From sequence record LC494302.1: a DNA stretch of 64,000 bases. One strand, given 5' to 3'. Position numbers and translations under genes: made by a program. The notes under the pieces were generated by a model that saw only the letters and a program-made list of their open reading frames with translations, was not told the DNA's origin and searched no databases. Origin of the DNA: Escherichia phage SP27. Shown here piece after piece: positions 38,323 to 57,629 of the stretch (positions are counted from its first letter, which is position 1; every line of letters begins with the position of its first letter).

Positions 38323-38469
38323 TTATGGGGTGTAGTAGTGATTTGGTTGATTCAGTACTGAATAATAGTACTCCTATATAGAAAGATAGTTCCCCTGGAT
38401 GGTTGCAGTACTGAATAATAGTACTCCTATATAGAAAGAAAACTATTTTAAAAGTATTTGTAGAAAGTA

Positions 38470-38530
38470 CTTGCACCGTACTGATAAAAGCGTATAATGT
38501 TTTACATCGAGAGCGGGAACACTTCCCGCT
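38470..38530 (+). promoter_or_regulatory. PeSL cassette
   Basis: ACTTGCAC..GCGTATAATGTTTTACATC + hairpin AGCGGGAACACTTCCCGCT. Confidence 0.65.
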
Positions 38531-38553
38531 ACACATTAAGAGAGATTAAAACG

Positions 38554-38916
38554 ATGGCGACTCAAATCAATAAAATCATGCTTAACCTGGTAAACTTCCG
38601 CGATGAGATGAAAGGTCTTCCGGCTGAAACTGTAAAAATTCACATTGCAGCTTATCGGGAACTTATTGCAATGTTGCCGCTTAAGCGTGAACAATACGCC
38701 GCTACTTTGATGCTGGATTCAATGATCCATATAATGATCTCAAATGATTTAACGATGGTTTATCAGTACATGGGCGAAAATTTCGCGGTGTGTAGTAAGC
38801 CAGTACCAGGGATGGCAACAACTGAGGAATTGCACGGCTTAAACTTAAAACAAGATGCATGGGATAATATGCCTCGTTTCCTGGTATGGGCTGACAGTGG
38901 CAAAATTTACAAATAA
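38554..38916 (+). CDS. hypothetical protein
   Basis: PeSL cassette then AAGAGAG RBS before ATG 38554 (track ORF start lies in promoter). Confidence 0.6.
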   Translation: MATQINKIMLNLVNFRDEMKGLPAETVKIHIAAYRELIAMLPLKREQYAATLMLDSMIHIMISNDLTMVYQYMGENFAVCSKPVPGMATTEELHGLNLKQDAWDNMPRFLVWADSGKIYK

Positions 38917-38930
38917 GTTTAATAAAGTAC

Positions 38931-38990
38931 TTGCAAACTATGTTTAATGGCGTATAATGTTTTACATCAGGTGGGGAATAGTTCCCCACT
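38931..38990 (+). promoter_or_regulatory. PeSL cassette
   Basis: TTGCAA-16-TATAAT + hairpin GTGGGGAATAGTTCCCCAC. Confidence 0.65.
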
Positions 38991-39008
38991 ATATAAGAGG
39001 ATTAAAAA

Positions 39009-39248
39009 ATGGCTAAATCAAAAATGTTCTTAGGTCACAAAAACAAAACTCATTGGAATGTAAGCCTGTGGATTAATAACGATGAGGGATTGTATCGGTT
39101 GGCCCTGGACTTTATTGCCGCCAATACTAATCGCAATGATGCGGCCCGTCATATGATGTTATTTTTAGAACAGACTGGACAAGATAAAACACCGGACGGA
39201 TTCAAATATAGCACTACTGCGATCCGTGCGGCGATGGTTGGAATGTAA
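39009..39248 (+). CDS. hypothetical protein, family C (paralog of 41050..41289)
   Basis: PeSL + AAGAGG RBS; shared GHKNKTHWNVSLWINN and PDGFKYSTTAIRAAMVGM. Confidence 0.65.
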   Translation: MAKSKMFLGHKNKTHWNVSLWINNDEGLYRLALDFIAANTNRNDAARHMMLFLEQTGQDKTPDGFKYSTTAIRAAMVGM

Positions 39249-39261
39249 TAGAATTTATTTA

Positions 39262-39297
39262 AAGTACTATCATTTTTTTGCGATAGTACTTTATAAT
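39262..39297 (+). promoter_or_regulatory. promoter with AGTACTAT..ATAGTACT palindrome (operator-like)
   Basis: AGTACTATC..GATAGTACT inverted repeat + TATAAT; weak -35. Confidence 0.4.
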
Positions 39298-39334
39298 AGT
39301 GTTTTATTCATACACCAACGATAAGGGCAACAGC

Positions 39335-39601
39335 ATGAATATTAAGTATTTTGCGACGCGTGAACAAGCTCGGATCGCCGCACGCCAGGACGGGGCAACG
39401 TTTAAAGATATGGGAGCGGGATCGGCAAGTGGTGAACGTTGGGCCATTGTAAAGCGTAGTACGGCCAGATCTTTACAGTACTGGTTAGCGGCCTTAAAAA
39501 GTCCCGATAGTGTATCGCGTCGAGTGGTAGAAATAAAGCTCGACCGAAAGGGCAACCGCGTGACCGTGTACCGTACTAAAAAGATTGCAGTACTTGAATA
39601 A
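39335..39601 (+). CDS. hypothetical protein, family A (paralog of 52376..52771)
   Basis: AAGGG before ATG 39335; shared FYATREQARI..TFKDMG and DRKGNRVTVY. Confidence 0.6.
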   Translation: MNIKYFATREQARIAARQDGATFKDMGAGSASGERWAIVKRSTARSLQYWLAALKSPDSVSRRVVEIKLDRKGNRVTVYRTKKIAVLE

Positions 39602-39608
39602 AAAGTAC

Positions 39609-39668
39609 TTGCAAACTATGTTTAATGGCGTATAATGTTTTACATCGAGAGCGGGAACACTTCCCGCC
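39609..39668 (+). promoter_or_regulatory. PeSL cassette
   Basis: near-identical to 38931 copy; hairpin AGCGGGAACACTTCCCGC. Confidence 0.65.
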
Positions 39669-39688
39669 TATAACCTGGAGTAATAAAA

Positions 39689-39919
39689 ATGACTAATATG
39701 TATATGACTGAAGTTAAAACCGTAAAAGATACTACCACGAATAAAACTACTTACTTACAGCGGATCTGTGGTGTATGGCAACGTATCAGCAAATCAAAGT
39801 ACTTTAAATTAACATCATATGCAAATCGTTCGGATTCATTCAGTACTGAAATAAAAGGTAATAAAGTACACCAATACGGCACTTATTATTATTATAGCCT
39901 GGACGCGATTGCAGTATAA
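39689..39919 (+). CDS. hypothetical protein
   Basis: PeSL + GGAG RBS; 76 aa. Confidence 0.55.
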   Translation: MTNMYMTEVKTVKDTTTNKTTYLQRICGVWQRISKSKYFKLTSYANRSDSFSTEIKGNKVHQYGTYYYYSLDAIAV

Positions 39920-39949
39920 GCAGTTTACAAATCTTTACAATTGCCGGTA

Positions 39950-39978
39950 TTGACTTATTTTGTCAGTACTGGCATAAT
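39950..39978 (+). promoter_or_regulatory. sigma70-like promoter
   Basis: TTGACT-17-CATAAT, leader box follows about 25 nt downstream. Confidence 0.45.
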
Positions 39979-40002
39979 GTATTCATTGGCAGATAAGCCG
40001 TA

Positions 40003-40030
40003 GCCCATAGGGTGCGGGAGTGTATCTATA
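40003..40030 (+). promoter_or_regulatory. conserved leader box AGCCCAYAGGGTGC..GTGTATCTA
   Basis: one of 7 copies, each about 20-25 nt after a promoter -10. Confidence 0.4.
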
Positions 40031-40169
40031 GAAAAAGTAGTTTAGTATAGTTACAATTGTGCACCCGGTGGGTTAGCTGTTGTCATGGGGTATATTATGC
40101 CAGTACTTGATAATGCTGTCAATACTTTTTTTTTAATATTCAGTACTGAAAACTATTTTTAAAAAGTAC

Positions 40170-40320
40170 TTGCAAACTATGTTTAAAGGCGTATAATGTT
40201 TTACATCAGGACGGGGAACGAAATAAGTAACTTCCCGTTAAGTAGCCCAGGAGTAAGGCACACGAAAAACTCCCCTGATAAAATAGTTTGACAATTGTTT
40301 TTAAAAGCGTATAATACTTA
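40170..40320 (+). promoter_or_regulatory. dual-promoter cassette with structured leader (copy 1)
   Basis: TTGCAA/TATAAT, then about 70-nt element ATCAGGACGGGGAACG..ACTCCCCTGAT, then TTGACA-16-TATAAT; about 90% identical to 51146..51292. Confidence 0.55.
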
Positions 40321-40347
40321 CATCAACTACTGAATGAGGGTTACAAA

Positions 40348-40959
40348 ATGAAAACTATCACTACTACTACTTATGTTATGGCTTTTTCTGAATTGAACGC
40401 AGAACAACAAACGTCAGCTATCGAACTGGTTCGGGAACGTGAAAAAAACTTAAACGATGATTATTTTTCTGAAAGTGAAATTGAATACTATAAAGAAACA
40501 GTACTACCGGAATATGGCATTAATGACGCTGAAATACAATTCAGTGGCTTTTGGTCCCAGGGTGACGGTGCATCAATCAGTACTGACCACGTTGACGCAG
40601 TGAAGTTTTTACGCAAGGTAAGAGCATTAACTAAGTATCGCTCAATCCGTCACTTGCTGAATGAAGATGATTTGGCGATGAGTGTAAAGCGTTCGCACTC
40701 CCACTACTCGCATGAGAATACTGTAAGCGGGTACATTGAATCGGCTTACACTGATTTAACCGCAAAACAAGAAACGTTAGTTAATGAGCTTGAGGAACTA
40801 CTCACTGAAACTATTCGTGAATTATCCCGCAAGTTGTACCGTGATTTAGAGAATGCATATGAGGATCAATTCACTACTGAAAACATTACGGCACTGATTG
40901 AGGGTAACGAATATCAATTCAATGTTATTGATGGAGTAGTAGAATCAATCGAATATTAA
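40348..40959 (+). CDS. hypothetical acidic protein (203 aa)
   Basis: TTGACA/TATAAT promoter and GAGGG RBS upstream. Confidence 0.6.
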   Translation: MKTITTTTYVMAFSELNAEQQTSAIELVREREKNLNDDYFSESEIEYYKETVLPEYGINDAEIQFSGFWSQGDGASISTDHVDAVKFLRKVRALTKYRSIRHLLNEDDLAMSVKRSHSHYSHENTVSGYIESAYTDLTAKQETLVNELEELLTETIRELSRKLYRDLENAYEDQFTTENITALIEGNEYQFNVIDGVVESIEY

Positions 40960-40971
40960 TTTAAAAAGTAC

Positions 40972-41034
40972 TTGCAAACTAAGTTTAAAAGCGTATAATA
41001 CTTTATATCGAGGCGGGGAGTGGTTCCCCGCTCA
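40972..41034 (+). promoter_or_regulatory. PeSL cassette
   Basis: TTGCAA-16-TATAAT + hairpin GGCGGGGAGTGGTTCCCCGCTC. Confidence 0.65.
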
Positions 41035-41049
41035 AACGAGGATTTAAAA

Positions 41050-41289
41050 ATGGCTAGTACTAAAACTTACAACGGACACAAAAACAAAACTCATTGGAAT
41101 GTAAGCCTTTGGATTAATAACGGTGAGTCATTGTATCGGCTTGCTCAAAGTTGCATCGCACAAAGTAGAACTAAAGATATTGCTGCGGAATGTATGTACC
41201 GCAGATTAAAAGCCAACGGTACTACTACAACGCCGGACGGCTTTAAGTATAGCACTACTGCGATCCGTGCTGCAATGGTTGGAATGTAA
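41050..41289 (+). CDS. hypothetical protein, family C (paralog of 39009..39248)
   Basis: PeSL + GAGGA RBS before ATG 41050. Confidence 0.65.
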   Translation: MASTKTYNGHKNKTHWNVSLWINNGESLYRLAQSCIAQSRTKDIAAECMYRRLKANGTTTTPDGFKYSTTAIRAAMVGM

Positions 41290-41346
41290 TATTCAGTACT
41301 GAGATAATGGCGGGAACTATTACCCGCCTTTACTGAGGGTTATCTA

Positions 41347-41634
41347 ATGAGTAAAGTAATAAAGTACAATGTGTTAAGCAAATCATTGTCTATCAGTGAA
41401 TGCACCGATGGTTTTTGGATGTACGATGAAACGCGTGGCATGAATTTAGCTATGCGTGCAAAAACTGCTGAGGCGGCGTATATTCAAGCACTGGAATACT
41501 ACCAGGAACGTTTGAAGGAAGTAGAAGAAGATTATAAAAGCCTCAAAGCGAAAGTAGATCATTTCGTCGGTCAATTCGTGGAAGACAACGACGAGGACGG
41601 GCACTACTGCGACCGTTGCGGATCTTACAGTTAA
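41347..41634 (+). CDS. hypothetical protein
   Basis: hairpin then GAGGG RBS; 95 aa, C-terminal CDRC. Confidence 0.55.
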   Translation: MSKVIKYNVLSKSLSISECTDGFWMYDETRGMNLAMRAKTAEAAYIQALEYYQERLKEVEEDYKSLKAKVDHFVGQFVEDNDEDGHYCDRCGSYS

Positions 41635-41651
41635 GTACTAAGGATTATATA

Positions 41652-41864
41652 ATGAGTGATTTAATTGAACGTATCAAAGAGCTTGAAGAAAAAGAATTGC
41701 AGTTGATCGGGTTACGGAATAAAGTATTCCATGATTTAGGTGGCTTTATTAATGCCTGGGATAGTGGCGATCCTGATGCGTTACCTGCTAACCGCCAGGC
41801 GATGATCAATGATGTGCGTGGTGTCTTTGATTATGTTTTAAAAGTACTAGACACTAAGCAATAA
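41652..41864 (+). CDS. hypothetical protein
   Basis: AAGGA RBS before ATG 41652. Confidence 0.5.
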   Translation: MSDLIERIKELEEKELQLIGLRNKVFHDLGGFINAWDSGDPDALPANRQAMINDVRGVFDYVLKVLDTKQ

Positions 41865-41925
41865 AGGCGTATAATACTTTATATTGGTACTGACAAACAT
41901 TATAAGCGATGCAGGAGCTTTAATC

Positions 41926-42111
41926 ATGACAACATTATCTGAGGTTATCCGCGATCAAGCTGCAAAGGCTGGAATGACTGTTATCAATGTAGGGATCAAG
42001 ATTGAGATCTCCCCTAACGAGTTGCAAGGGATTCCCGATCCTACTAGCTGGGATCGTGCTGGGCGAATGATGAGTAATGCTTCATTACTGGACGGTACAA
42101 AATTTAATTAA
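41926..42111 (+). CDS. hypothetical protein
   Basis: AGGAG RBS before ATG 41926. Confidence 0.5.
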   Translation: MTTLSEVIRDQAAKAGMTVINVGIKIEISPNELQGIPDPTSWDRAGRMMSNASLLDGTKFN

Positions 42112-42118
42112 AAAGTAC

Positions 42119-42180
42119 TTGCAATTAGTTTTCAGTACTGTATAATGGTTTACATCAAAGGGAGAAATGGTTCTCCCTGG
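42119..42180 (+). promoter_or_regulatory. PeSL cassette
   Basis: TTGCAA-16-TATAAT + hairpin GGGAGAAATGGTTCTCCC. Confidence 0.65.
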
Positions 42181-42196
42181 TAATGAGGAAAATACA

Positions 42197-42418
42197 ATGG
42201 CTAATATCACTACTCTTTCCCAACTGGAAGCACTGGTTAAATCTATGCGGGAACATGCCGACAAAATCGGCGTACAAGATCCAGCCGTTTGCTTCTGCGA
42301 CGAATTGAATGATGATACACTGGTAATAGCAGAAGTCCAGGACGTTTCTAACTATTCCTCGCGTTACACTGGCGGCGTAGCAAATAAAGGTGACTTCTGT
42401 TTATACCTTACAAAATAA
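42197..42418 (+). CDS. hypothetical protein
   Basis: PeSL + GAGGA RBS before ATG 42197; followed by hairpin terminator. Confidence 0.6.
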   Translation: MANITTLSQLEALVKSMREHADKIGVQDPAVCFCDELNDDTLVIAEVQDVSNYSSRYTGGVANKGDFCLYLTK

Positions 42419-42421
42419 CAA

Positions 42422-42452
42422 CGCGGGGAGATAATAACTCCCCGTTACTTTT
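42422..42452 (+). terminator. rho-independent terminator
   Basis: CGGGGAGATAATAACTCCCCG + TTACTTTTT. Confidence 0.6.
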
Positions 42453-42586
42453 TCAGTACTGAATCATTTAATAGACGGATCTCGGCACCCGGTGGGTTAG
42501 TGACTGTTTCGTCTTGATGTAGTAATTATGCCAGTACTGGATGCACTTGTCAACAACTATTTTTCAAATACTTTTTATTAAAATAC

Positions 42587-42645
42587 TTGCAATTAGTTTT
42601 TAAACGCGTATAATGTTTTGCATAGGGGGAGCGGTTCCCCTGGTA
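42587..42645 (+). promoter_or_regulatory. PeSL cassette
   Basis: TTGCAA-16-TATAAT + hairpin GGGGGAGCGGTTCCCC. Confidence 0.65.
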
Positions 42646-42661
42646 ACTAAGGAATAATAAA

Positions 42662-42898
42662 ATGCTTGAACAAATCAAATCAACGTCTGCGAATGTAACG
42701 GGAACGGTTGTACACTTTACTAGTGATGAATCGCGGGGCGTTCCCTATTGTGCTGTACATGTAAACACTGATGGCAACTACTGGTTTACGGTTTACGGAT
42801 CATATTCATTTGGACGGCCAGGGCATCAAAAAATTCTGGATAAAGTACAACCAACGGGTAAAAATATCACTGCCGAAATGTTTTATAAAAAATCATAA
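42662..42898 (+). CDS. hypothetical protein
   Basis: PeSL + AAGGA RBS; 78 aa. Confidence 0.6.
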   Translation: MLEQIKSTSANVTGTVVHFTSDESRGVPYCAVHVNTDGNYWFTVYGSYSFGRPGHQKILDKVQPTGKNITAEMFYKKS

Positions 42899-42903
42899 AG
42901 TAC

Positions 42904-42965
42904 TTGCAATTAGTTTTTAGTACTGTATAATATTTTACATCGCAAGGGGAAACGGTTTCCCCTGG
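42904..42965 (+). promoter_or_regulatory. PeSL cassette
   Basis: TTGCAA-16-TATAAT + hairpin GGGGAAACGGTTTCCCC. Confidence 0.65.
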
Positions 42966-42982
42966 TAACTAAGGATAATCAA

Positions 42983-43282
42983 ATGAAAATTGCAATCATC
43001 GCCCTGGCTTTATCTGTTTCCTCTTTCGCTGTTAATGCGTCGTTAGATGTAAGTAGTGAAAAATTCATTCAGTGCACTGTTGCAATGACCGATGAAAGAA
43101 CTGGCGAGATTGTATTAAAGGATTTAGAGATCCAGCCGGAAGCATTTAAAAACGGCCCGTTCCATGAAGAAGACGAAAACGGTAGCACGACAATTTATTA
43201 TGATGCCAGTTCCAAGCGTGGATCGGTCACTGTAATGGATACTGAGAAAGTAACACACACAGGCGTTATTAATTGCCGTTGA
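42983..43282 (+). CDS. hypothetical secreted protein
   Basis: PeSL + AAGGA RBS; signal peptide MKIAIIALALSVSSFAVNA. Confidence 0.6.
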   Translation: MKIAIIALALSVSSFAVNASLDVSSEKFIQCTVAMTDERTGEIVLKDLEIQPEAFKNGPFHEEDENGSTTIYYDASSKRGSVTVMDTEKVTHTGVINCR

Positions 43283-43303
43283 TAGATACTACGGGGTAAC
43301 ATC

Positions 43304-43534
43304 ATGACTAAGCGAATTGTTTTACTTAACGAAAGCAGTACTACACAACTACTTAACGCCGTGCATTATGATATTGAAACGAGCGTTAATCTTATCAGTA
43401 CTGTAGTACTGTTGGACACTGGAAAGGTCGCCAATGATAAAGCGATTGCAGGTATATTAACGGATCTTGAGCCTGGTAGCAGTGCACCCATAACGTTAAA
43501 TGGTAAAGTGTTTAATATTTTACTCACTGATTAA
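43304..43534 (+). CDS. hypothetical protein
   Basis: GGGG RBS; 76 aa; followed by hairpin terminator. Confidence 0.55.
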   Translation: MTKRIVLLNESSTTQLLNAVHYDIETSVNLISTVVLLDTGKVANDKAIAGILTDLEPGSSAPITLNGKVFNILLTD

Positions 43535-43540
43535 GTACAT

Positions 43541-43568
43541 AGCCCACCAGGTGGGCTTTTTTGTTTTT
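43541..43568 (+). terminator. rho-independent terminator
   Basis: AGCCCACCAGGTGGGCT + TTTTTGTTTTT. Confidence 0.7.
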
Positions 43569-43616
43569 ATAGTATCGTAGTACTGAGATACTTTGAAAAT
43601 AGTTTTAAGAAAGTAG

Positions 43617-43700
43617 TTGACATTACCACAGAAAAGCGTAGAATGTATTACATCAAGACGGGGAGCACTAAGTAGACCGCCAGTAAGTCGAACGAAAAAC
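43617..43700 (+). promoter_or_regulatory. promoter + divergent structured leader
   Basis: TTGACA-16-TAGAAT then ACATCAAGACGGGGAGC.. element partly similar to the 40200/51180 leader. Confidence 0.4.
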
Positions 43701-43767
43701 TGGACACGTCGAGAAAACTTTGATACACTAATAAACGTAAACTAAACTTTAATTGAGGATTTATAAA

Positions 43768-44250: not shown

Positions 44251-44271
44251 CAATTAAAGTACTGAATCACT

Positions 44272-51869: not shown

Positions 51870-51872
51870 GTA

Positions 51873-51937
51873 TTGACAAAGTATCTTAGTACTGTATAAT
51901 AGTTTACATCAAGTGAGGGGAATGGTTCCCCTCCTAA
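51873..51937 (+). promoter_or_regulatory. PeSL cassette (near-duplicate of 51602)
   Basis: same promoter, hairpin GAGGGGAATGGTTCCCCTC. Confidence 0.65.
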
Positions 51938-51956
51938 CTAAAAGAGAGAAATAAAA

Positions 51957-52280
51957 ATGGCTATGATCCTTGCCCAGAAAGTAGAATTGAAAATTGTAAC
52001 CTCCTTTGACATTAACGTTAATCGGTGGACTGATTCACACGGCAATACTTACCACTCTTGCTACGTGTCTGCGTTAATTGGCGACCGCTGGGAAGACCTG
52101 GGACACGAAACCTTTACATACGGTTACGGTACACAAGGCGAATACACGGGCTTGGAGATCATTAAAGAAACCGTTATAGGTTTCAACCCGAAAGAAAAAG
52201 TTATTCACCGCATCGAGGAAGAGATCAACAAAGAAATAACAGTTCGCTACCACGATGTAAAACGTAAGAAAGACATGTAA
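51957..52280 (+). CDS. hypothetical protein, family B (paralog of 45074..45418)
   Basis: PeSL + AGAGAGA RBS. Confidence 0.6.
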   Translation: MAMILAQKVELKIVTSFDINVNRWTDSHGNTYHSCYVSALIGDRWEDLGHETFTYGYGTQGEYTGLEIIKETVIGFNPKEKVIHRIEEEINKEITVRYHDVKRKKDM

Positions 52281-52292
52281 TAGAATCCATTT

Positions 52293-52331
52293 AAAGTACT
52301 ATTTGACATTGCCCAGATAGTACTTTATAAT
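52293..52331 (+). promoter_or_regulatory. palindromic-operator promoter
   Basis: AGTACTATTTGACATTGCCCAGATAGTACT + TATAAT. Confidence 0.55.
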
Positions 52332-52375
52332 AGACTCTAACTTGTAGTACTAACTCAACTAATAGGATGTATACC

Positions 52376-52771
52376 ATGATTACTAAATTCTACGCTACCC
52401 GTGAAGCTGCCCGTATTGTTGCACGCGAGGAAGGCGAAACATTTAAAGACATGGGCAAAGATGCACCGAAAGGTCAACGCTGGGCCGTACAGTTCAAAGA
52501 GATCTCTGATATTGTGAATTCACCGGAGCCAGTACTAACAGCAGCAGAACTAAAACGAGCGGATTTACTGGCGTCAATACTTGATGCACAAGATGAGTTT
52601 ATCGCTGATTCTGATATCAAAGTACAGACAAACCACACCGCTTGGACTCACGCGGATCACCTGGCAAACCTTAAGCGTCCAAGTGAACTGATTCGCAACC
52701 AGAAAGAGATCCGACACGACCGTAAGGGTAATCGTGTAACAGTATACAGTAAACGCCGCCAGGTTATCTAA
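52376..52771 (+). CDS. hypothetical protein, family A (paralog of 39335..39601)
   Basis: palindromic promoter; AGGA 8 nt before ATG 52376. Confidence 0.6.
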   Translation: MITKFYATREAARIVAREEGETFKDMGKDAPKGQRWAVQFKEISDIVNSPEPVLTAAELKRADLLASILDAQDEFIADSDIKVQTNHTAWTHADHLANLKRPSELIRNQKEIRHDRKGNRVTVYSKRRQVI

Positions 52772-52792
52772 TAACTTGCAGTACTAACAACA

Positions 52793-52820
52793 CGGCGGGA
52801 TCAGTTCCCGCCTTTTTTAT
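52793..52820 (+). terminator. rho-independent terminator
   Basis: GGCGGGATCAGTTCCCGCC + TTTTTTAT. Confidence 0.65.
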
Positions 52821-52832
52821 AGGACAAACAAA

Positions 52833-53087
52833 ATGATTAAGGTTCAACTATATAAAGATAACATCTTACGGGTACACTATAAAGCACCTCAGAGAATCAT
52901 CACAAAGGCCGTACAGCTTGCAAATGAGTTTATTAATGGTAACCTATTACCTAGGAAGTTAAGCAACGGGAAACTGCGTGTAATCGACGTGGACACTAAC
53001 AACAGGATAGTAATCGAGAACACAGGAAAGATAAACCTTTATGAGCATCAACAATACAATAAGAAAATAAAACTAATATCACGTTGA
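52833..53087 (+). CDS. hypothetical protein
   Basis: terminator hairpin then AGGA RBS; 84 aa. Confidence 0.55.
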   Translation: MIKVQLYKDNILRVHYKAPQRIITKAVQLANEFINGNLLPRKLSNGKLRVIDVDTNNRIVIENTGKINLYEHQQYNKKIKLISR

Positions 53088-53140
53088 CAGTACTCAAATG
53101 TTTTAGTACTATATGTACATACCAACACGGGGGAAACAAA

Positions 53141-53383
53141 ATGATTACTTTAGAAAAACGTATCAAAGAAACTACATCGCTGGTGGAACTGTTAACAGTA
53201 CTCAAATGTAAAACAACACCATTCAGCACGCCGGACTTTATTAATATGGTTGATGTTAATGGTCGCTATCGTATCACGGTCGAACAAGGAGCGGCGAAAG
53301 TATTCAGTACTAAAAACACGAAGGAAGTGATCCACGCCGTTAATGTTAAAAAAGTAGTTGCCATTGATAGTAAAGTACTGTAA
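53141..53383 (+). CDS. hypothetical protein
   Basis: GGGGGA RBS before ATG 53141. Confidence 0.5.
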   Translation: MITLEKRIKETTSLVELLTVLKCKTTPFSTPDFINMVDVNGRYRITVEQGAAKVFSTKNTKEVIHAVNVKKVVAIDSKVL

Positions 53384-53414
53384 GATAGTTACATTAACTC
53401 AAGGAGAACATGCA

Positions 53415-53999
53415 ATGCGTAATTATACTAAATTCATCCGTACACTGTCAGAAATGGAAACCAACAAAGAGATCCTTTCAGCTTGTCGGTTAGCTGGCCT
53501 GGAGATCATCGGTGCTGGTTCTTCCCGTATAGTTTTCGCTTTAAATGATCGGTTAGTGATTAAGGTCGCGAATTGTGATGCGGGTGTAGAACAAAATGAA
53601 ACTGAATGTAAGGTATGGAATTTTTTAGACTATGACCGCCCTCAGTTGAAACAGTACTTTGCAAAGGTGCATATGCATTTATGCGATCCTGATAATATGT
53701 TTATCGTTATGGATCGGTTGAGTACTGCAAGTAAAGGCAGTGTGAAGCACGTAAACGCGTGCAATGAATTAAAGTACAATATTAAACGTAATGCAATCGA
53801 CCGCCAGCACCGCTTTGCTGATGCACTACAACACGTTGATGATACATTATCAACACTAACGATAAGAGATATCAGAAAACAGAATATCGGCCAGGATCGT
53901 AATGGACTTATTAAAGTACTTGATTACGGTTTAACCAGCAATATCTGGAATCAGTACTATAAAAAGCGTGATGTGGCAGCAAGTAAGGTAACACGATAA
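53415..53999 (+). CDS. putative protein-kinase-like protein
   Basis: AAGGAG RBS before ATG 53415; glycine-loop IGAGSSRIVF, VIKVA lysine, catalytic-loop-like IRDIRKQNIG, VLDYG (DFG-like). Confidence 0.5.
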   Translation: MRNYTKFIRTLSEMETNKEILSACRLAGLEIIGAGSSRIVFALNDRLVIKVANCDAGVEQNETECKVWNFLDYDRPQLKQYFAKVHMHLCDPDNMFIVMDRLSTASKGSVKHVNACNELKYNIKRNAIDRQHRFADALQHVDDTLSTLTIRDIRKQNIGQDRNGLIKVLDYGLTSNIWNQYYKKRDVAASKVTR

Positions 54000-54009
54000 A
54001 AAAGATTAA

Positions 54010-54040
54010 AAAAGGGATTGACTCCGGTCAGTCCCTTTGC
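54010..54040 (+). terminator. terminator/promoter module
   Basis: AAAAAAGGGATTGACTCCGGTCAGTCCCTTTGCTATTATAT. Confidence 0.65.
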
Positions 54041-54069
54041 TATTATATATCCATTGAGAGATAACTCAC

Positions 54070-54100
54070 TGACCCATAGGGTGCGGAAGTGTATCTATTA
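54070..54100 (+). promoter_or_regulatory. conserved leader box
   Basis: GACCCATAGGGTGCGGAAGTGTATCTATTATATA. Confidence 0.4.
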
Positions 54101-54140
54101 TATAAGTATTCAGTACTGAAAACTATTTTTAAAAAAGTAC

Positions 54141-54200
54141 TTGCATTGTACTTAGAATCAAGTATAATGTTTTATATCGAGAGGGGAAATGGTTCTCCCT
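54141..54200 (+). promoter_or_regulatory. PeSL cassette
   Basis: TTGCAT..TATAAT + hairpin GGGGAAATGGTTCTCCC. Confidence 0.6.
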
Positions 54201-54219
54201 GGCAATAAGGAATAAAATC

Positions 54220-54441
54220 ATGACTACAATGACTTGCATTTACGCTTCCAATCTACTGAATGATGCGGCCTTTAATGTTGATTCAGAATATCAATGTTAT
54301 CGGGATGAAAATAAAAAAGTTTTTGTAGTTGATAATAATGGTTTCCATATTGAATTACAATCCGGCTTCACTGGTGTTGATGGTAAATCAGTATGGGGCG
54401 TACAGGATGATAAAGGCACATATCATTTTAAACGTAATTAA
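54220..54441 (+). CDS. hypothetical protein
   Basis: terminator, leader box and PeSL upstream; AAGGAA RBS. Confidence 0.6.
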   Translation: MTTMTCIYASNLLNDAAFNVDSEYQCYRDENKKVFVVDNNGFHIELQSGFTGVDGKSVWGVQDDKGTYHFKRN

Positions 54442-54444
54442 GTA

Positions 54445-54505
54445 TTGACAAAGTATACCAGTACTGTATAATAGTTTACATCAAGGGGAGAATAGTTCTC
54501 CCCGA
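54445..54505 (+). promoter_or_regulatory. PeSL cassette
   Basis: TTGACA-16-TATAAT + hairpin GGGGAGAATAGTTCTCCCC. Confidence 0.65.
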
Positions 54506-54525
54506 TACTAAAAGGAAACAAAATT

Positions 54526-54798
54526 ATGTCCAGCTACTCCGCTACTATGATCATTAAAGATATGAACGGTAATCCTACTTCTGCTGGTGGATCATTTGGA
54601 AACATTAATTTAGATGGTCGGTTATCCATGCAATCAGCAATCGATGCAGCGAAAGAAGTTTTTAAGAATGAATGTACTGTTAGTAAGCTGGATTATATGG
54701 GATTTGCTATCGAAAAAACTAATCGTTTTGTGGACTACAAAAAACCACTGATGATTGATACTAACCTGAAAGCAAACGAAGTGGAGTACTTATTATGA
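54526..54798 (+). CDS. hypothetical protein
   Basis: PeSL + AAGGAAA RBS; 90 aa. Confidence 0.6.
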   Translation: MSSYSATMIIKDMNGNPTSAGGSFGNINLDGRLSMQSAIDAAKEVFKNECTVSKLDYMGFAIEKTNRFVDYKKPLMIDTNLKANEVEYLL

Positions 54799-54986
54799 CA
54801 GTTGAAGAAGTTAAAAAAGTACTGGCAGTACTACGCTATCATAATCATTGTAAGGTGAAGAATGATCCTGATTATCTTGATTCATCCCTGGAAGAGGATA
54901 CACTACAAGCAATAAGCCATATGCAAACATTAGCAAAGCGTATGACCGAAAAGAATAGACCGGACTATATCGGAAATAAAATTTAA
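54795..54986 (+). CDS. hypothetical protein
   Basis: ATGA overlap with upstream stop; 63 aa. Confidence 0.5.
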   Translation: MTVEEVKKVLAVLRYHNHCKVKNDPDYLDSSLEEDTLQAISHMQTLAKRMTEKNRPDYIGNKI

Positions 54987-54994
54987 AAAGTACT

Positions 54995-55055
54995 TGCATT
55001 GTAGTTAGATTAACGTATAATGTTTTACATAGAGCGGGGGAATAGTTCTCCCGCC
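54995..55055 (+). promoter_or_regulatory. PeSL cassette
   Basis: TTGCAT..TATAAT + hairpin GCGGGGGAATAGTTCTCCCGC. Confidence 0.65.
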
Positions 55056-55072
55056 AGTCCAGGAGATACACC

Positions 55073-55336
55073 ATGAACACTATCGAAATCACTATCAATG
55101 CACACGTATACGACAACGTAATCATGCAAACTACTATGACCGCTAATGATACCAGTACTTTGCGGAATACTGTTATTAGTGCCGTATGTGCCGCTATCGG
55201 TGATGTCGCCCTGGAAAATGCAGAACATATCAACAACGGTTTCACTATGTGCAAGCGTGATAACGCAAAACATATCATCGTAGAAGGTTACGGCGGTGTA
55301 GAATTTAATGTTTATATGAAAAAAGTACTTGCATAA
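55073..55336 (+). CDS. hypothetical protein
   Basis: PeSL + AGGAGA RBS; 3' end overlaps next PeSL. Confidence 0.6.
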   Translation: MNTIEITINAHVYDNVIMQTTMTANDTSTLRNTVISAVCAAIGDVALENAEHINNGFTMCKRDNAKHIIVEGYGGVEFNVYMKKVLA

Positions 55337-55387
55337 TAACTAAAACAAAGTATAATGTTTTGCATAGGGGGAGATATCCTCCCCCAC
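55329..55387 (+). promoter_or_regulatory. PeSL cassette
   Basis: TTGCAT..TATAAT + hairpin GGGGGAGATATCCTCCCCC. Confidence 0.65.
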
Positions 55388-55403
55388 TAAAAGGAGTAAT
55401 AAA

Positions 55404-55628
55404 ATGGCTAACTTTGATGAACTGATGCGGGAAGTAGCTAACCTGGCAGAAGAGAAGAAATCATTCGATTCTATCTATAACACCGCTCATCGTGATTCAG
55501 TACTGGCATGTACTCAGGATCAAAAAGATGAACTAATCGCCACCTATCATGAAGCATGGAAGTACTACCGACAATGGGAGAAAGAAGAAAGAGAGTCTAC
55601 CATTGACGGCCTCAACAATCTAATCTAA
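55404..55628 (+). CDS. hypothetical protein
   Basis: PeSL + AAGGAG RBS; 74 aa. Confidence 0.6.
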   Translation: MANFDELMREVANLAEEKKSFDSIYNTAHRDSVLACTQDQKDELIATYHEAWKYYRQWEKEERESTIDGLNNLI

Positions 55629-55639
55629 AAGTTTTATTT

Positions 55640-55676
55640 CAGTACTATTGACATAGCTTGATAGTACTGATGTAAT
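55640..55676 (+). promoter_or_regulatory. palindromic-operator promoter
   Basis: AGTACTATTGACATAGCTTGATAGTACT + TGTAAT. Confidence 0.5.
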
Positions 55677-55704
55677 AACTTTACTAACTACAAGGGGAAA
55701 CATA

Positions 55705-55962
55705 ATGGAACAGTTCACACAATATCGGGTAAATCCTCAAGCTATGGCCTACGTAGAAGACCATAAAACATTACCAGTACTAACACCAATTAAAGGCCAT
55801 ATCTATCGTGCAATGTCATGGAATACCGCCCAGGATGGATATACTACCGCTGGCGTGGGTATGTATTGCGGGAATGGTGAATGGTTTGATCCAAATAATC
55901 CGGTAGCCATTGACAGTACTGAAAAAATGAAATGGGCCGACTACATCGAAGATATTTCATAA
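55705..55962 (+). CDS. hypothetical protein
   Basis: palindromic promoter + GGGGAAA RBS; 85 aa. Confidence 0.55.
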   Translation: MEQFTQYRVNPQAMAYVEDHKTLPVLTPIKGHIYRAMSWNTAQDGYTTAGVGMYCGNGEWFDPNNPVAIDSTEKMKWADYIEDIS

Positions 55963-55968
55963 AACTAT

Positions 55969-56031
55969 TTGACAGTACTAACCAGTAATGTATAATGTTT
56001 TACATAGAGCGGGGGAATAGTTCTCCCGCCA
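55969..56031 (+). promoter_or_regulatory. PeSL cassette
   Basis: TTGACA-16-TATAAT + hairpin GCGGGGGAATAGTTCTCCCGC. Confidence 0.65.
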
Positions 56032-56051
56032 ATAGTTTGGAGTAAAACATT

Positions 56052-56252
56052 ATGTCTATCGCTATCGCCCTGGTTGAAGTACTGAAAGAAGCTAAAGCCA
56101 ACCAGATCGACGTAAAGATCCAGGAACTACAAAACGGCGTAATCGGCTGTACTTGTACCGCTGGTGGAGCGGCAGACTATCGAGAACACGAATCACTCGA
56201 ATCACTGGTTCGGTATCTTACCATGATCGTTGATGATTGGAGAATCATCTAA
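56052..56252 (+). CDS. hypothetical protein
   Basis: PeSL + GGAG RBS; followed by terminator. Confidence 0.6.
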   Translation: MSIAIALVEVLKEAKANQIDVKIQELQNGVIGCTCTAGGAADYREHESLESLVRYLTMIVDDWRII

Positions 56253-56267
56253 CAAAAAAGAATAAAA

Positions 56268-56298
56268 AAGGGATTGACTCCGGTCAGTCCCTTTGCTA
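56268..56298 (+). terminator. terminator/promoter module
   Basis: AAAAAAGGGATTGACTCCGGTCAGTCCCTTTGCTATTATAT. Confidence 0.65.
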
Positions 56299-56324
56299 TT
56301 ATATACGCATAGACAAAAACTAGC

Positions 56325-56352
56325 CCACAGGGTGCATAGGTGTATCTAAAAT
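56325..56352 (+). promoter_or_regulatory. conserved leader box
   Basis: AGCCCACAGGGTGCATAGGTGTATCTAAAATATA. Confidence 0.4.
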
Positions 56353-56413
56353 ATATGGTTAATAACGGTGAGTAACTATCTGCTGGTGGAGTGAAAACTA
56401 TTAATAAAAAAGT

Positions 56414-56442
56414 ATTGACAAAGTATATCAGTACTGCGATAA
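56414..56442 (+). promoter_or_regulatory. sigma70-like promoter
   Basis: TTGACA-17-GATAAT upstream of 56497. Confidence 0.5.
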
Positions 56443-56496
56443 TGTATCTCGTAGGGCGGCAATGGTGCGACGGCCCACAAAGTTAGGAGATTCAAA

Positions 56497-56829
56497 ATGA
56501 GTACTTCAATCGCTATCGTTAAAGCTTTCATCCGTACCAATGTTTCATCTGTATTCATCGACGGTATGGATCGGGAAGTAGAATACTCAATCATTATCGC
56601 ACAGACTGCAAACGGTGCTCGGTATATCCTCAATGATAGTGAAGCAAATCACTACTACTTCACTAAAGCTACTGGCTTTAAACGCATCGATGCCGATGTA
56701 GTATACGCTAAGATGAATAAGCTGGTAGACAAGATTAACGCTAAAGGCACTATTGATTTACAGTACTGGACCGAAACCGATCCAGAATATGGATCTCACC
56801 GCTACCTGAATCCAGGTATTAAAATGTAA
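56497..56829 (+). CDS. hypothetical protein
   Basis: TTGACA promoter, AGGAGA RBS; 110 aa. Confidence 0.6.
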   Translation: MSTSIAIVKAFIRTNVSSVFIDGMDREVEYSIIIAQTANGARYILNDSEANHYYFTKATGFKRIDADVVYAKMNKLVDKINAKGTIDLQYWTETDPEYGSHRYLNPGIKM

Positions 56830-56836
56830 AAAGTAC

Positions 56837-56900
56837 TTGCATAGTACTTAGATTCATGTATAATGTTTTACATAGAGAGGGGGAAATGGTTCTCCCTCCT
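56837..56900 (+). promoter_or_regulatory. PeSL cassette
   Basis: TTGCAT..TATAAT + hairpin GAGGGGGAAATGGTTCTCCCTC. Confidence 0.65.
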
Positions 56901-56918
56901 AAATTAAGGAGTTTTATC

Positions 56919-57320
56919 ATGACCTTCTCAATCACTTCCTTCGCTGACGTTTTAGTACTGGCTCGGACTTTTGGTAAAGATGCACTGGAGTACGCTGTAA
57001 GTAATGGCACTATCCAACCGGAACAGTGCCGCATCATTGGAAACTGCAAACGTTGGGCGGTATCCAATACTATTGCACTGGAAAACTTCCACGATGGCAA
57101 CAATGAATATTCTGTTGATGTAGTATTCGAAGCCGTTGATCTCGGCGGTATCTATAATACTAACCTGAATGATGTGCGTATCGTTCGCACGGGGTTCGGT
57201 GCTTATGATGTATCTATCCGTGAAGCTATGAACACCGGATACATTAGCAAGGACTTACTTGCTCACATCATGCAGCTGTGTACGGAACGTAACGAAGCAC
57301 GTACTATCTTAGGGCTGTAA
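56919..57320 (+). CDS. hypothetical protein
   Basis: PeSL + AAGGAG RBS before ATG 56919. Confidence 0.6.
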   Translation: MTFSITSFADVLVLARTFGKDALEYAVSNGTIQPEQCRIIGNCKRWAVSNTIALENFHDGNNEYSVDVVFEAVDLGGIYNTNLNDVRIVRTGFGAYDVSIREAMNTGYISKDLLAHIMQLCTERNEARTILGL

Positions 57321-57388
57321 GCAATACACATCACCAAACATCATAGGCCGCTCTCTAGCGGCCTTAACTATATCAGGAGTACATACAC

Positions 57389-57598
57389 ATGATCTATACA
57401 GTATACAGCGTCCTAGGCACTATTGCAGGCGTACATGATAACGTCGATAGTGCTATGCGTACAGTACTGCAACAGGTTCCACTAAAGCCTAAGACCATTA
57501 AGCAGATGACAGCACGACTAACCAGGGCGACCGATGGCGTGGAAGTATGGCAGGACTACGGGGATACACAGATAATCGTTAGCGTAACGAAGGATTAA
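57389..57598 (+). CDS. hypothetical protein
   Basis: hairpin then AGGAG RBS; 69 aa. Confidence 0.55.
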   Translation: MIYTVYSVLGTIAGVHDNVDSAMRTVLQQVPLKPKTIKQMTARLTRATDGVEVWQDYGDTQIIVSVTKD

Positions 57599-57629
57599 TG
57601 CGTAAAGGGATCTAGTACTGATTCAGAAA

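Follow-up and report, generated by a model that had tools for sequence, protein, structure and literature searches.

The window analysed here, a stretch of 64,000 nucleotides from Escherichia phage SP27 (sequence record LC494302.1), contains between positions 38460 and 57600 a crowd of small genes, 23 of which stand directly behind a repeated unit of near-consensus promoter and GC-rich hairpin. The locus raises the question of what these promoter-hairpin cassettes are, what their hairpin does and how the same unit came to front so many different genes. A megablast search of positions 38460-46460 against phage genomes matched 204 records, the top ones being Asteriusvirus jumbo coliphages (CMSTMSU, BAU.Micro_ELP-22, A4, UE-S1, vB_Ec-M-J, phAPEC6, G17, Sharanji and PBECO4) that align with 90-96% identity over just 45-86% of the query, split into 2-8 pieces. 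To judge from these matches, the window phage is an Asteriusvirus jumbo coliphage of the PBECO4/121Q/phAPEC6 group. In vB_Ec-M-J, positions 1-21525 are annotated as 'Direct Terminal Repeats', and a blastn alignment puts the two ends of this feature at 36822 and ~57750 of the window, respectively. By this homology the direct terminal repeat (DTR) of the window phage probably comprises the ~21 kb from 36822, corresponding to genome position 1, to 57750 on the + strand and is present in a single copy; the interval 38460-57600 thus represents its gene-bearing part and not, as the preliminary description implied, an inter-core hyperplastic region of a T4-type phage. PhageTerm determined similar repeats of 20,668 bp in Sharanji and 20,993 bp in fEgEco12 (PMC11895373, PMC13070987), the latter additionally supported by restriction digests (PMC13070987). 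The DTR of the window phage holds ~54 genes with a median length of 77 amino acids (aa), which are all oriented inward from the left genome end and account for 72% of the region.

The cassettes were delineated in two ways. A hexamer and hairpin scan, which looked for a TTG-type -35 box, a spacer of 16-18 nt, a TATAAT-like -10 box and a GC-rich hairpin downstream, retrieved 23 units on the + strand from 38471 to 56864 and another at 9941, and none on the - strand. The covariance model R1, built from these 24 copies (23 in the region plus the outlier at 9926), recovers the same 23 cassettes on the + strand (38456-56912) with 59.6-96.9 bits and adds the outlier and two long-leader variants (40155-40254 and 51131-51229). 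The unit anatomy proposed in the preliminary description was found by scan and model alike, and its estimate of about 25 copies agrees with the 25 model matches formed by the 23 cassettes and the two variants. The complete 351,992-bp genome of phage EC22.5-2, which was assembled from eight loci, contains 31 model matches at an expect value (E) <= 1e-3, and 30 of the 31 lie on one strand inside the 19 kb equivalent to the DTR. The cassettes are confined to the DTR with the exception of one outlier each in EC22.5-2 and in the window, where the sole cassette-like copy outside the DTR is located at 9926-10012 on the + strand (TTGACA-16-TATAAT, hairpin GGGGATGA-acttc-TCATCCCC, 49.5 bits).

Each cassette spans ~80 nt and displays a fixed order of elements, namely an A-tract with AAAGTAC, the -35 box, the spacer, TATAAT, GTTTTACAT or a close variant, the hairpin, a Shine-Dalgarno (SD) sequence and the ATG. 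The A-tract precedes the promoter in all 23 cassettes, the -35 box is TTGCAA, TTGCAC or TTGCAT in 15 copies and TTGACA in eight, and the spacer measures 16 nt apart from one copy with 17. The promoters match the sigma-70 consensus at 10-12 of 12 positions, and the region contains 11 perfect 12/12 matches. The stem, which comprises 6-9 bp (mostly 7-9) and has a G/A-rich 5' arm, begins 9-15 nt past the -10 box in all 24 window copies and encloses a loop of 3-5 nt; about 10 nt separate it from the SD, which is followed by the ATG, and the distance from the start of the -35 box to the ATG is 75-85 nt in 23 of 23 cassettes. The loops differ from copy to copy both in sequence and in length (cac, tag, tgg, atgg, acgg, atga, acatc, atatc) and two closing A-U pairs are nearly invariant; what had at first been described as an AAnGGTT loop largely consists of these two pairs and a loop such as UGG, UAG or AUGG. 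GGAG is present in many 5' arms and missing from several copies. Two further readings of the unit were dropped, an extended -10 box (TGn) in ACTGTATAAT, whose TG is out of register, and a processing of the hairpins by RNase III, for which the stems are too short.

From left to right, the first cassette (38456-38545, TTGCAC-16-TATAAT, hairpin AGCGGGAA-cac-TTCCCGCT, 72.5 bits) precedes the gene 38554-38916 and the second (38916-39004, GGTGGGGAA-tag-TTCCCCACT, 87.1 bits) the gene 39009-39248. They are followed by the cassettes at 39594-39683 (GCGGGAA-cac-TTCCCGC, 80.8 bits; gene 39689-39919), 40957-41046 (GGCGGGGAG-tgg-TTCCCCGCT, 79.2 bits; gene 41050-41289), 42104-42193 (AGGGAGAA-atgg-TTCTCCCT, 96.2 bits; gene 42197-42418), 42572-42657 (TAGGGGGA-gcgg-TTCCCCTG, 67.2 bits; gene 42662-42898) and 42889-42978 (AGGGGAAA-cgg-TTTCCCCT, 87.4 bits; gene 42983-43282). 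The gene 44536-44763 is fronted by a hairpin with two G-U pairs (44438-44528, GAGGGGGAA-acgg-TTCTCCTTC, 80.0 bits), and the genes 44849-44992, 46377-46523 and 46605-46757 by the cassettes 44757-44846 (GGGGAGAA-atgg-TTCTCCCC, 91.5 bits), 46283-46372 (GGGGAGAA-atga-TTCTCCCC, 92.4 bits) and 46512-46601 (GGGGGGAA-atgg-TTCTCCCC, 96.9 bits), respectively. The cassette 47099-47188 (AGGGGAAA-cgg-TTTCCCCT, 88.0 bits) serves the gene 47193-47534, and the adjoining one of TTGACA type (47534-47622, GGGGAGAA-tag-TTCTCCCC, 82.9 bits) the gene 47628-47840. The lowest score belongs to the copy at 49656-49743 (TTGCAT-17-TATAGT, AGGGGAA-acatc-TTCCCCT, 59.6 bits; gene 49746-49934), which is followed by three cassettes of TTGACA type at 50278-50366 (GGGGAGAA-atga-TTCTCCCC, 72.3 bits; gene 50369-50581), 51588-51678 (GAGGGGAA-acgg-TTCCCCTC, 68.9 bits; gene 51687-51869) and 51859-51948 (GAGGGGAA-tgg-TTCCCCTC, 69.2 bits; gene 51957-52280). 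At 54126-54215 (GGGGAA-atgg-TTCTCC, 88.0 bits; gene 54220-54441) the stem is shorter than in the relatives (AGGGGGAA/TTCTCCCT). The remaining copies are located at 54431-54518 (TTGACA type, GGGGAGAA-tag-TTCTCCCC, 73.5 bits; gene 54526-54798), 54979-55068 (GCGGGGGAA-tag-TTCTCCCGC, 84.1 bits; gene 55073-55336), 55314-55400 (GGGGGAG-atatc-CTCCCCC, 70.2 bits; gene 55404-55628), 55954-56043 (TTGACA type, GCGGGGGAA-tag-TTCTCCCGC, 69.5 bits; gene 56052-56252) and 56822-56912 (GAGGGGGAA-atgg-TTCTCCCTC, 83.3 bits; gene 56919-57320).

All 24 window copies fold into a hairpin, whose free energy lies between -10.6 and -15.9 kcal/mol. In seven of eight folded 5' untranslated regions (UTRs), the SD and the ATG remain unpaired beside a single hairpin, and in the eighth (38505-38559), the 5' end and the start-codon region are additionally base-paired to each other in the minimum free energy (MFE) fold. 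The 24 copies comprise 17 distinct stems, in which the fourth pair from the loop is G-C in 11, A-U in seven and G-U in six cases, and pairs 7 and 8 likewise vary on both sides. For a covariation analysis, the window and five relatives together supplied 131 distinct copies, which were placed in a model-fitted alignment and compared with 500 shuffles. Pairing was found in 89.8% of the cells versus 81.7 +/- 0.6% after shuffling, and changes on both sides in 97 cells versus 37.7; neither value was reached in any of the 500 shuffles. The covariation score is 0.342, compared to 0.205 in the shuffles and 0.05-0.13 in slid registers. These figures bear out the initial claim of compensatory hairpin changes and of selection on RNA structure.

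The pair counts were redone on each copy's own fold, because the alignments carry register errors: loops of 3 and 4 nt are out of register with each other in the MAFFT alignment of the cassettes, and stems of 9 bp are misregistered in the model-fitted alignment. Among 72 distinct, individually refolded hairpins, the internal non-Watson-Crick combinations are G-T in 13, A-C in three and others in six cases. The G-T excess over A-C of 13:3 (two-sided binomial p ~0.02) indicates that only the sense strand tolerates wobble pairs, a pattern expected of RNA or a one-strand structure. In the same set the 5' arm carries the purine at 464 of 503 pairs (92%). The hairpin is retained at almost every orthologous position, defined by the same downstream gene, in the relatives with CMSTMSU set aside, and the differences between orthologous hairpins are either compensatory changes or swaps of the whole cassette. 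One example is the stem GCGGGAA/TTCCCGC of the 39594 cassette, which corresponds to TGGGGAA/TTCCCCA in TH47, and another is GCGGGGGAA/TTCTCCCGC of the 54979 cassette, which is replaced by GAGGGGGAA/TTTCCCCTC in orthologous copies. In CMSTMSU (MH494197, flagged UNVERIFIED) the stems are typically one base shorter per arm at runs of G and C, and we suspect that this apparent loss of hairpins reflects homopolymer sequencing errors and is best ignored; only short, scattered open reading frames (ORFs) are annotated in this record. The hairpin is selected as a sense-strand structure.

The cassettes were also found beyond Asteriusvirus. The Klebsiella jumbo phage fENko-Kae01 belongs to a separate genus-level cluster with 28.6% average nucleotide identity to fEgEco12 (PMC13070987, Table 2). 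The model matches in this phage, 10 strong and ~10 promoter-only ones, are located without exception on the + strand and inside its annotated DTR of 19,736 bp, and its cassettes are 78-88% identical to those of the window on the DNA level. Only 20 of its 50 DTR proteins, compared with the 54 of the window, have a homologue there, with a mean identity of 44% and a partly different order. The orthologues k18919 and g56919 (gene 56919-57320) share just 43.5% protein identity and are preceded by the identical hairpin GAGGGGGAAATGGTTCTCCCTC. Judged by these identities, the cassettes are conserved far better than their genes. Several DTR genes match ~150-kb Phapecoctavirus and rV5-like coliphages with 75-92% DNA identity, which points to recent gene exchange between unrelated coliphage lineages; matches of this kind to ~150-kb coliphages cover 38918-41291 and 45123-45418 and include records labelled as Campylobacter phages. 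In the Phapecoctavirus 536P1, homologues of 39009-39248 and 45074-45418 belong to an array with 16 model matches that reach E <= 0.1, including 13 that reach E <= 0.01, and the 16 share one strand. Six units were read directly, and five of these exhibit the same layout with TTGACA, 17 nt, TAAGAT or TAAACT and ..ACATAG, and one stem, for example, reads GGCGGGAAG-tgg-TTTCCCGCC, followed by an SD and an ATG. When IMG/VR was scanned for the exact pattern TATAATGTTTTACAT, the matches listed were mostly single AT-rich chance matches, and at least three contigs with multiple matches carry cassettes. The literature searched on Asteriusvirus, CBB, RaK2-like and rV5 phages does not describe the cassettes, and the Asteriusvirus papers searched do not describe promoters.

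The positions at which related DTRs diverge were determined from chained megablast alignments to five relatives within 38400-57650. Fifteen of 45 distinct breakpoints fall inside cassette intervals, compared to an expectation of 10.9% (p = 5e-5), and most of the others are located at gene ends or other promoters. Five junctions (38926/39005, 47105/47196, 51693/51867, 53060/53144 and 54440/54538) show the overlap signature of an indel between two copies of one promoter unit; four of them lie at hairpin cassettes and 53060/53144 at a hairpin-less promoter near 53084. The cassettes 38916-39004 and 54431-54518 are junctions of cassette-flanked indels in comparison with vB_Ec-M-J and EC22.5-2, and 47099-47188 in comparison with EC22.5-2 and TH47. 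The gene 51687-51869 is absent in UE-S1 and TH47, where one single cassette stands, and the vB_Ec-M-J orthologue of the gene 49746-49934 sits behind a different cassette. The relatives cover 81-93% of the DTR gene region with 0.7-1.25 breaks per kb; they match less of the left flank (24-80% of 22-36.8 kb), and the right flank resembles the DTR. The region is thus a mosaic, yet no more so than the neighbouring sequence in the window, and the term 'hyperplastic' used for it before does not set it apart.

The explanation that we favour, and regard as slightly more probable than not, is that the DTR represents the immediate-early region of the phage and the cassettes its host sigma-70 expression modules, with a hairpin that acts as stabiliser and insulator, and that the cassettes serve in addition as recombination junctions. 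The DTR would be transcribed early by the unmodified sigma-70 RNA polymerase of the host, and its 23 cassette-fronted genes would form self-contained modules of A-rich tract, near-consensus promoter, A/T-rich discriminator, hairpin, unpaired SD and ATG. The predicted transcription start is the A of the conserved CAT in GTTTTACAT (...TTTTACAT), 6-8 nt past the -10 box, which would place the stem between about +5 and +27 of the mRNA; at 9-15 nt past the -10 box it lies downstream of any plausible start site. None of the 23 cassettes carries a T-tract after the hairpin. Since the hairpin is located inside its own transcript and lacks a U-tract, it is most likely a 5'-proximal stabiliser and insulator. 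It would provide each early mRNA with the same folded 5' end and slow 5'-end-dependent decay, keep the ribosome-binding site free whatever lies upstream and, in read-through transcripts, also protect the 3' end of the upstream cistron. As the cassettes are far better conserved than the genes, they could also act as homology patches, and recombination between them would add, delete, swap and reorder modules of promoter and gene, both within the genus and with other enterobacterial myoviruses. Both the effect of the hairpin on the mRNA and the mechanism of recombination are inferred.

Several known systems resemble parts of this scheme. The short stable 5' hairpins of the ompA 5' UTR and the T7 gene 10 leader are located upstream of an unpaired ribosome-binding site and stabilise the mRNA. 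With a hairpin close to the predicted mRNA 5' end and an unpaired ribosome-binding site behind it, the cassettes would be similar to them, and the sequences look alike, too (GGGAGACCACAACGGTTTCCC in T7, GGGGAAACGGTTTCCCC in the cassettes); they differ by the estimated 4-7 single-stranded nt on the 5' side of the stem. The pre-early, first-step-transfer terminal repeat of T5 and the left end of T7 carry strong promoters for sigma-70 or the host polymerase and inward-directed genes that are expressed first. The DTR of the window phage is similar with respect to its genes at a terminal repeat or left end, its very strong sigma-70 promoters and their inward direction, but we know of no repeated promoter-hairpin unit ahead of each gene in T5 or T7. 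Early transcription by the host polymerase is supported by the related jumbo phage PA5oct, in which RNA-seq documented that many DTR genes are highly transcribed early in dependence on the host RNA polymerase, promoters with TTGAC and TATAATA boxes were predicted and two non-coding RNAs are located in the DTR (PMC7318152). Both phages possess a long DTR crowded with small genes; in this comparison, made by description only, PA5oct differs in being a Pseudomonas phage with a DTR of 39 kb and 105 genes, for which a promoter-hairpin cassette is not described (PMC7318152).

Several points weigh against this explanation. The literature searched offers no transcript data for the phage group, and we infer both the start site and the early timing. 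The predicted start leaves ~4-7 unpaired nt on the 5' side of the stem, whereas 0-4 nt are usually quoted from work on ompA for full protection by a 5' stem-loop. The covariation statistics are inflated by the model-fitted alignment and by the kinship of the copies. The purine content of 92% in the 5' arm and the occurrence of identical hairpins in different genera point to sequence constraints beyond pairing that a purely structural role would not explain, which leaves room for a contribution of protein recognition or promoter escape. Finally, eight of 18 intergenic breakpoints are located in hairpin cassettes compared to an expectation of 35% (p = 0.27), and given this lack of enrichment, promoter units in general and not the hairpin may be the junctions.

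The base composition of the coding sequences had been taken as consistent with an acquisition from elsewhere. The GC content amounts to 0.38-0.41 across most of 37-58 kb versus 0.30-0.36 in the flanks, and it is uneven within the DTR with dips to 0.34-0.37 at 46-50 and 53-56 kb. The mean GC content at third codon positions (GC3) of the DTR genes is 0.381 versus 0.288, 0.270 and 0.327 in three flanking sets (Mann-Whitney p = 1e-7, 1e-5 and 1e-3). CTG, CCG, GCG, CGC, GGC and ATC are raised and AGA, AGG and ATA are depleted: AGA and AGG together account for 0.11 of the Arg codons in the DTR versus 0.64-0.65 in two flanking sets and 0.17 in 1-17000, and ATA for 0.10 of the Ile codons versus 0.23-0.47 in the flanks. 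The GC-richer codons (gcg, ccg, ctg) noted at the outset are thus real in comparison with the flanks, but their attribution to an acquisition from elsewhere is one reading among others. An origin of the small genes from GC-richer donors, which concerns the composition only, is conceivable but doubtful. It is compatible with the spread of GC3 between genes, whose standard deviation of 0.071 exceeds the 0.056 expected from sampling (range 0.23-0.52), and with the exchange with unrelated ~150-kb Phapecoctavirus and rV5-like coliphages documented by the matches of several genes with 75-92% DNA identity. However, the shift spans the whole region irrespective of the cassettes, with a GC3 of 0.374 in cassette-fronted and 0.383 in other DTR genes (p = 0.73), and it is directed toward codons preferred by the host and away from AGA, AGG and ATA, as expected for genes translated before phage tRNAs and host takeover. 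The DTR of the Klebsiella phage fENko-Kae01 is likewise GC-richer than the adjoining sequence (0.373 versus 0.333) and contains fewer rare codons (1.8% versus 4.7%), while its GC3 difference of 0.326 versus 0.290 is not significant (p = 0.085) with only seven genes outside the repeat. The equal GC3 with or without cassette and the GC-richer Klebsiella DTR fit a property of the early gene region, and a host-like codon regime for the genes that are translated first explains the GC shift at least as well as a foreign origin.

The resemblance to the promoter-early stem-loop (PeSL) cassettes, with which the units had been equated, suggests another function of the hairpin. PeSLs are known from the T4-type phages RB49/phi1, PST/T4 and nt-1/KVP40 (PMC2839356, PMC4122927) and consist of a strong sigma-70 promoter, an AT-rich upstream tract and a stem-loop that is often of the type GGGG...CCCC (PMC2839356). 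The stem-loops occupy five positions in and around the promoter, namely in the upstream AT-rich tract, over the -35 box, in the spacer, over the -10 box and, furthest downstream, just before the start site, and thus stay outside the unit's own transcript (PMC2839356). Mini-circles that form when units recombine with each other are also counted among the features of PeSLs. Three phi1 PeSLs that we read directly have the structure AAAAAGTTGTTGACA-GGGGATC..GATCCCC-TATAAT or TATACT, so that the stem-loop fills the spacer upstream of the start. Both kinds of units are repeated, intergenic, ~60-100 bp long and composed of an AT tract, a near-consensus sigma-70 promoter and a stem-loop of G-run and C-run; both precede small ORFan genes, and indel or replacement junctions of gene modules fall in them. 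Even the flanks are similar, with AAAAAGTTGTTGACA...TATAATACACACATC in the phi1 PeSLs and AAAAAGTACTTGCAA...TATAATGTTTTACATC in the window cassettes. They differ in that the stem-loop of the window cassettes occupies a constant position past the predicted start, within the 5' UTR of its gene and without a U-tract, and in that its units are located in the DTR of a jumbo Asteriusvirus and not between the core modules of a T4-type genome. The unfiltered model R1 detected no cassette in a 50-kb phi1 segment with ORF185-212, where the best match reached 20.6 bits with the hairpin deleted. The equation with PeSLs is therefore justified for the coupling of promoter and stem-loop, the small ORFans, the covarying stems and the junctions, but not for the position of the stem-loop or a homology to phi1.

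If the units were nevertheless true PeSLs, their stem-loop would terminate or attenuate upstream transcription and isolate each gene, as proposed for RB49/phi1. The G-run/C-run stems resemble those of the PeSLs, the modules are densely packed with a strong promoter each, and a PeSL stem-loop lowered lacZ reporter expression to a degree similar to that seen with the strong rrnB T1 terminator (PMC2839356). We nonetheless consider this function unlikely. With a stem located 9-15 nt past the -10 box everywhere, an efficient terminator would also cut short the transcript of its own module, a T-tract follows none of the 23 hairpins, the phi1 stem-loops lie in the spacer between -35 and -10, and the DTR harbors canonical terminators apart from the cassettes. 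These are located at 42423-42445 (hairpin and T-tract, bidirectional), 43541-43557 (+ strand; AGCCCACCAGGTGGGCT, then TTTTTT), 44272-44293 (+ strand) and 52794-52812 (bidirectional; GGCGGGATCAGTTCCCGCC, then TTTTTT). In addition, there are four composites of terminator and promoter on the + strand, each with a 12-bp stem-loop containing the -35 box TTGACT, a T-tract and TATTAT; one is located at 46984-47019, one at 51019-51054 (AAAGGGATTGACTCCGGTCAGTCCCTTT, then GCTATTAT), and two of the same sequence class at 54011-54046 and 56267-56302. According to their architecture, these four are the closer PeSL analogues of the DTR. The cassettes themselves are PeSL logic in a different architecture, placed in the terminal-repeat compartment of jumbo phages and with a reach across phage families.

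Alternatively, the hairpin could serve as an RNA site where immediate-early transcripts are recognised and marked by a protein of the phage or the host, and candidates for such a system are the recruitment of an antiterminator as by boxB, a RegB-like nuclease and a translational repressor of early genes. The nearly invariant closing A-U pairs, the purine bias of the 5' arm (92%), the GGAG in many 5' arms and the almost unchanged sequence between genera with one orthologous pair of identical hairpins would agree with a binding protein. The boxB of the lambda nut site is similarly a small hairpin just downstream of early promoters, but its loop is conserved and bound by N, whereas the cassettes have freely varying loops and occur in 23 copies, one per gene. 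That the loops are free in sequence and length, the stems change by compensation and GGAG is missing from several copies makes this alternative improbable, and a candidate binding protein was not found, with three of 20 proteins searched passing the Pfam threshold. A broader version is equally speculative. According to it, promoter and 5' hairpin form a mobile 'early expression adaptor' of Asteriusvirus, fENko-Kae01-like Klebsiella jumbo phages and Phapecoctavirus, and a conserved factor of host or phage origin recognises its hairpin with the purine-rich 5' arm and the conserved closing A-U pairs, so that immediate-early transcripts are first stabilised and later shut off at a set time, in a common code with the AGTACT sites described below. 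If true, any small gene behind the unit would be expressed correctly in many enterobacterial myoviruses.

Less likely still, the purine-rich 5' arm would be an initial transcribed sequence that aids promoter escape, with a 3' arm that masks its SD-like run and the hairpin as a by-product. The strong polarisation of the purine tract, which begins at about +5, is reminiscent of the T5 N25 early promoter, whose purine-rich initial transcribed region is important for escape. But the covariation of the 3' arm with the 5' arm and the tolerance of G-U and not of A-C argue for selection on pairing itself, and a role in promoter escape is compatible with the stabiliser and insulator function, not exclusive of it. 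A DNA-level function of the inverted repeat, as cruciform or hairpin signal for a site-specific or replication-coupled recombination that moves the modules, is highly improbable despite the indel junctions in cassettes, the orthologous genes with swapped cassettes and the crossover mapped by Arbiol et al. to the loop of a PeSL stem-loop (PMC2839356), because the 13:3 excess of G-T over A-C indicates one-strand pairing, the single orientation and fixed distance to the -10 box and the ATG tie the cassettes to expression, and breakpoints are equally common at hairpin-less promoters.

The cassettes are relevant for the understanding of the PBECO4/121Q-group jumbo phages, which are being isolated and proposed for therapy and most of whose genes are of unknown function. 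The ~25 portable units, placed in the terminal repeat, most likely drive the first genes expressed after infection, and it can now be asked which of the ~54 small proteins bring about the takeover of the host. The conservation of the units far exceeds that of the genes behind them, and other phage families in which some of these genes recur possess the units as well; conserved regulatory cassettes that drive module exchange between unrelated phages would, if true, generalise the PeSL idea beyond T4-like phages. The role of 5'-proximal hairpins in early phage mRNAs is testable now, and the units represent ready-made strong promoter and 5' UTR parts for E. coli.

In the two long-leader variants, a structured leader of ~85 nt replaces the hairpin behind the cassette-type promoter. 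The first (40155-40290, + strand, 62.4 bits; MFE -19.4 kcal/mol, z = -1.9) is succeeded by a promoter at 40288-40315 and the gene 40348-40959, and the second copy (51131-51264, + strand, 53.7 bits; MFE -21.0 kcal/mol, z = -2.5) by a promoter at 51262-51289 and the gene 51323-51598. The leader element itself (40203-40290 and 51179-51264, with a variant at 43650-43760) is free of ORFs and directly followed by the second promoter. Its predicted fold comprises a closing stem AUCAGG/CCUGAU that encloses two inner hairpins. The element, which is conserved in the relatives and has no Rfam match, is a candidate small RNA or leader.

The commonest hexamer of the DTR is the palindromic ScaI site AGTACT with 135 copies versus 6.7 expected. 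The whole window contains 280 copies versus ~21 expected, most densely in 36822-57750 and with none in 58000-62000; AGTACT is also the top hexamer of the complete 352-kb genome of EC22.5-2 (919 versus ~119 expected) and 24 kb of the Klebsiella phage contain it 129 times. Its copies are distributed over all three reading frames; in many cassettes it flanks the -35 box (AAAGTACTTGCA) and is found within the spacer (TAGTACTGTATAAT), and its own flanking context is weak, with CAGTACTG at 22% of the sites. A phage protein could bind or modify the motif; the literature search retrieved no paper that pairs AGTACT with a jumbo phage, and its interpretation as a SlmA site (consensus GTGAGTACTCAC) was dropped, as the flanks show only a weak C/G preference.

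The invariant 12-mer CCCANNGGGTGC is present in 10 copies versus 0.02 expected, all inside the DTR, at 37911, 38127, 40061 and 42485 on the - strand and at 40004, 47046, 48720, 51076, 54073 and 56324 on the + strand. Nine of them are located ~25-35 nt downstream of a sigma-70 promoter of a second class, which was not found for 37911. The DTR of the Klebsiella phage contains eight copies, and nine of the ten copies of EC22.5-2 lie in its DTR. A search for a conserved RNA fold of these units yielded only a weak stem of seven pairs and no covariation, and they may be short non-coding transcripts or DNA sites; the two non-coding RNAs in the DTR of PA5oct are highly expressed. At 39950-40122, two second-class promoters face each other ~140 bp apart inside a long imperfect inverted repeat and would give fully complementary short transcripts. 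The second-class unit at 42553 (- strand) runs into the bidirectional terminator 42423-42445 and would give an antisense RNA of ~100 nt. The motif TAGAATG(CG), which recurs in the non-coding stretches 36700-36810, 38260-38310, 44330-44410 and 48420-48450, may be the -10 region of another promoter class. Outside the DTR, + strand genes in 1-17 kb possess promoters of TTGACT, 18 nt and TATAAT or a TATNAT variant that are not followed by a GC-rich hairpin (1361, 4604, 7215, 11710 and 12992, + strand); the Arg codons of this part are dominated by CGT.

Three of 20 DTR proteins searched (the 10 longest and 10 others) pass the Pfam thresholds. They are encoded by a DksA/TraR zinc-finger gene (48990-49247, E = 1.6e-10), a GNAT acetyltransferase gene (49311-49667, E = 4e-9) and a DUF7247 gene (49962-50285); 53415-53999 shows a weak protein-kinase match. 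The DksA/TraR and GNAT genes are adjacent, and the promoters there are without hairpin. The TraR-like protein could reprogram the host polymerase, and the A/T-rich discriminators of the cassettes would be expected to resist it. The DTR comprises three pairs of paralogues, and ORFs of ~30 aa are found in its operons at 46754-46843, whose sequence reads as a hydrophobic peptide, and at 50599-50691. Rfam searches of the whole window gave no match at gathering thresholds and only two, chance-level matches in the DTR at E <= 1, and no tRNA genes were found in the window.

The first ~1.6 kb of the DTR (36822-38460) contain no convincing gene and are rich in short repeats, namely GGATGG, GACGGCTAAACGG and CTAGACG around 37540-37720 and many copies of TTCAGTACTGA; packaging or terminus-recognition sequences may be located here. 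To the right of the DTR, 57848-64000 is occupied by a tight array of ~25 genes, ~70 aa in length, whose stop and start codons overlap. With a GC content of 0.33, a heavy use of AGA, AGG and ATA and the absence of AGTACT between 58 and 62 kb, this array represents a compositional regime unlike that of the DTR.

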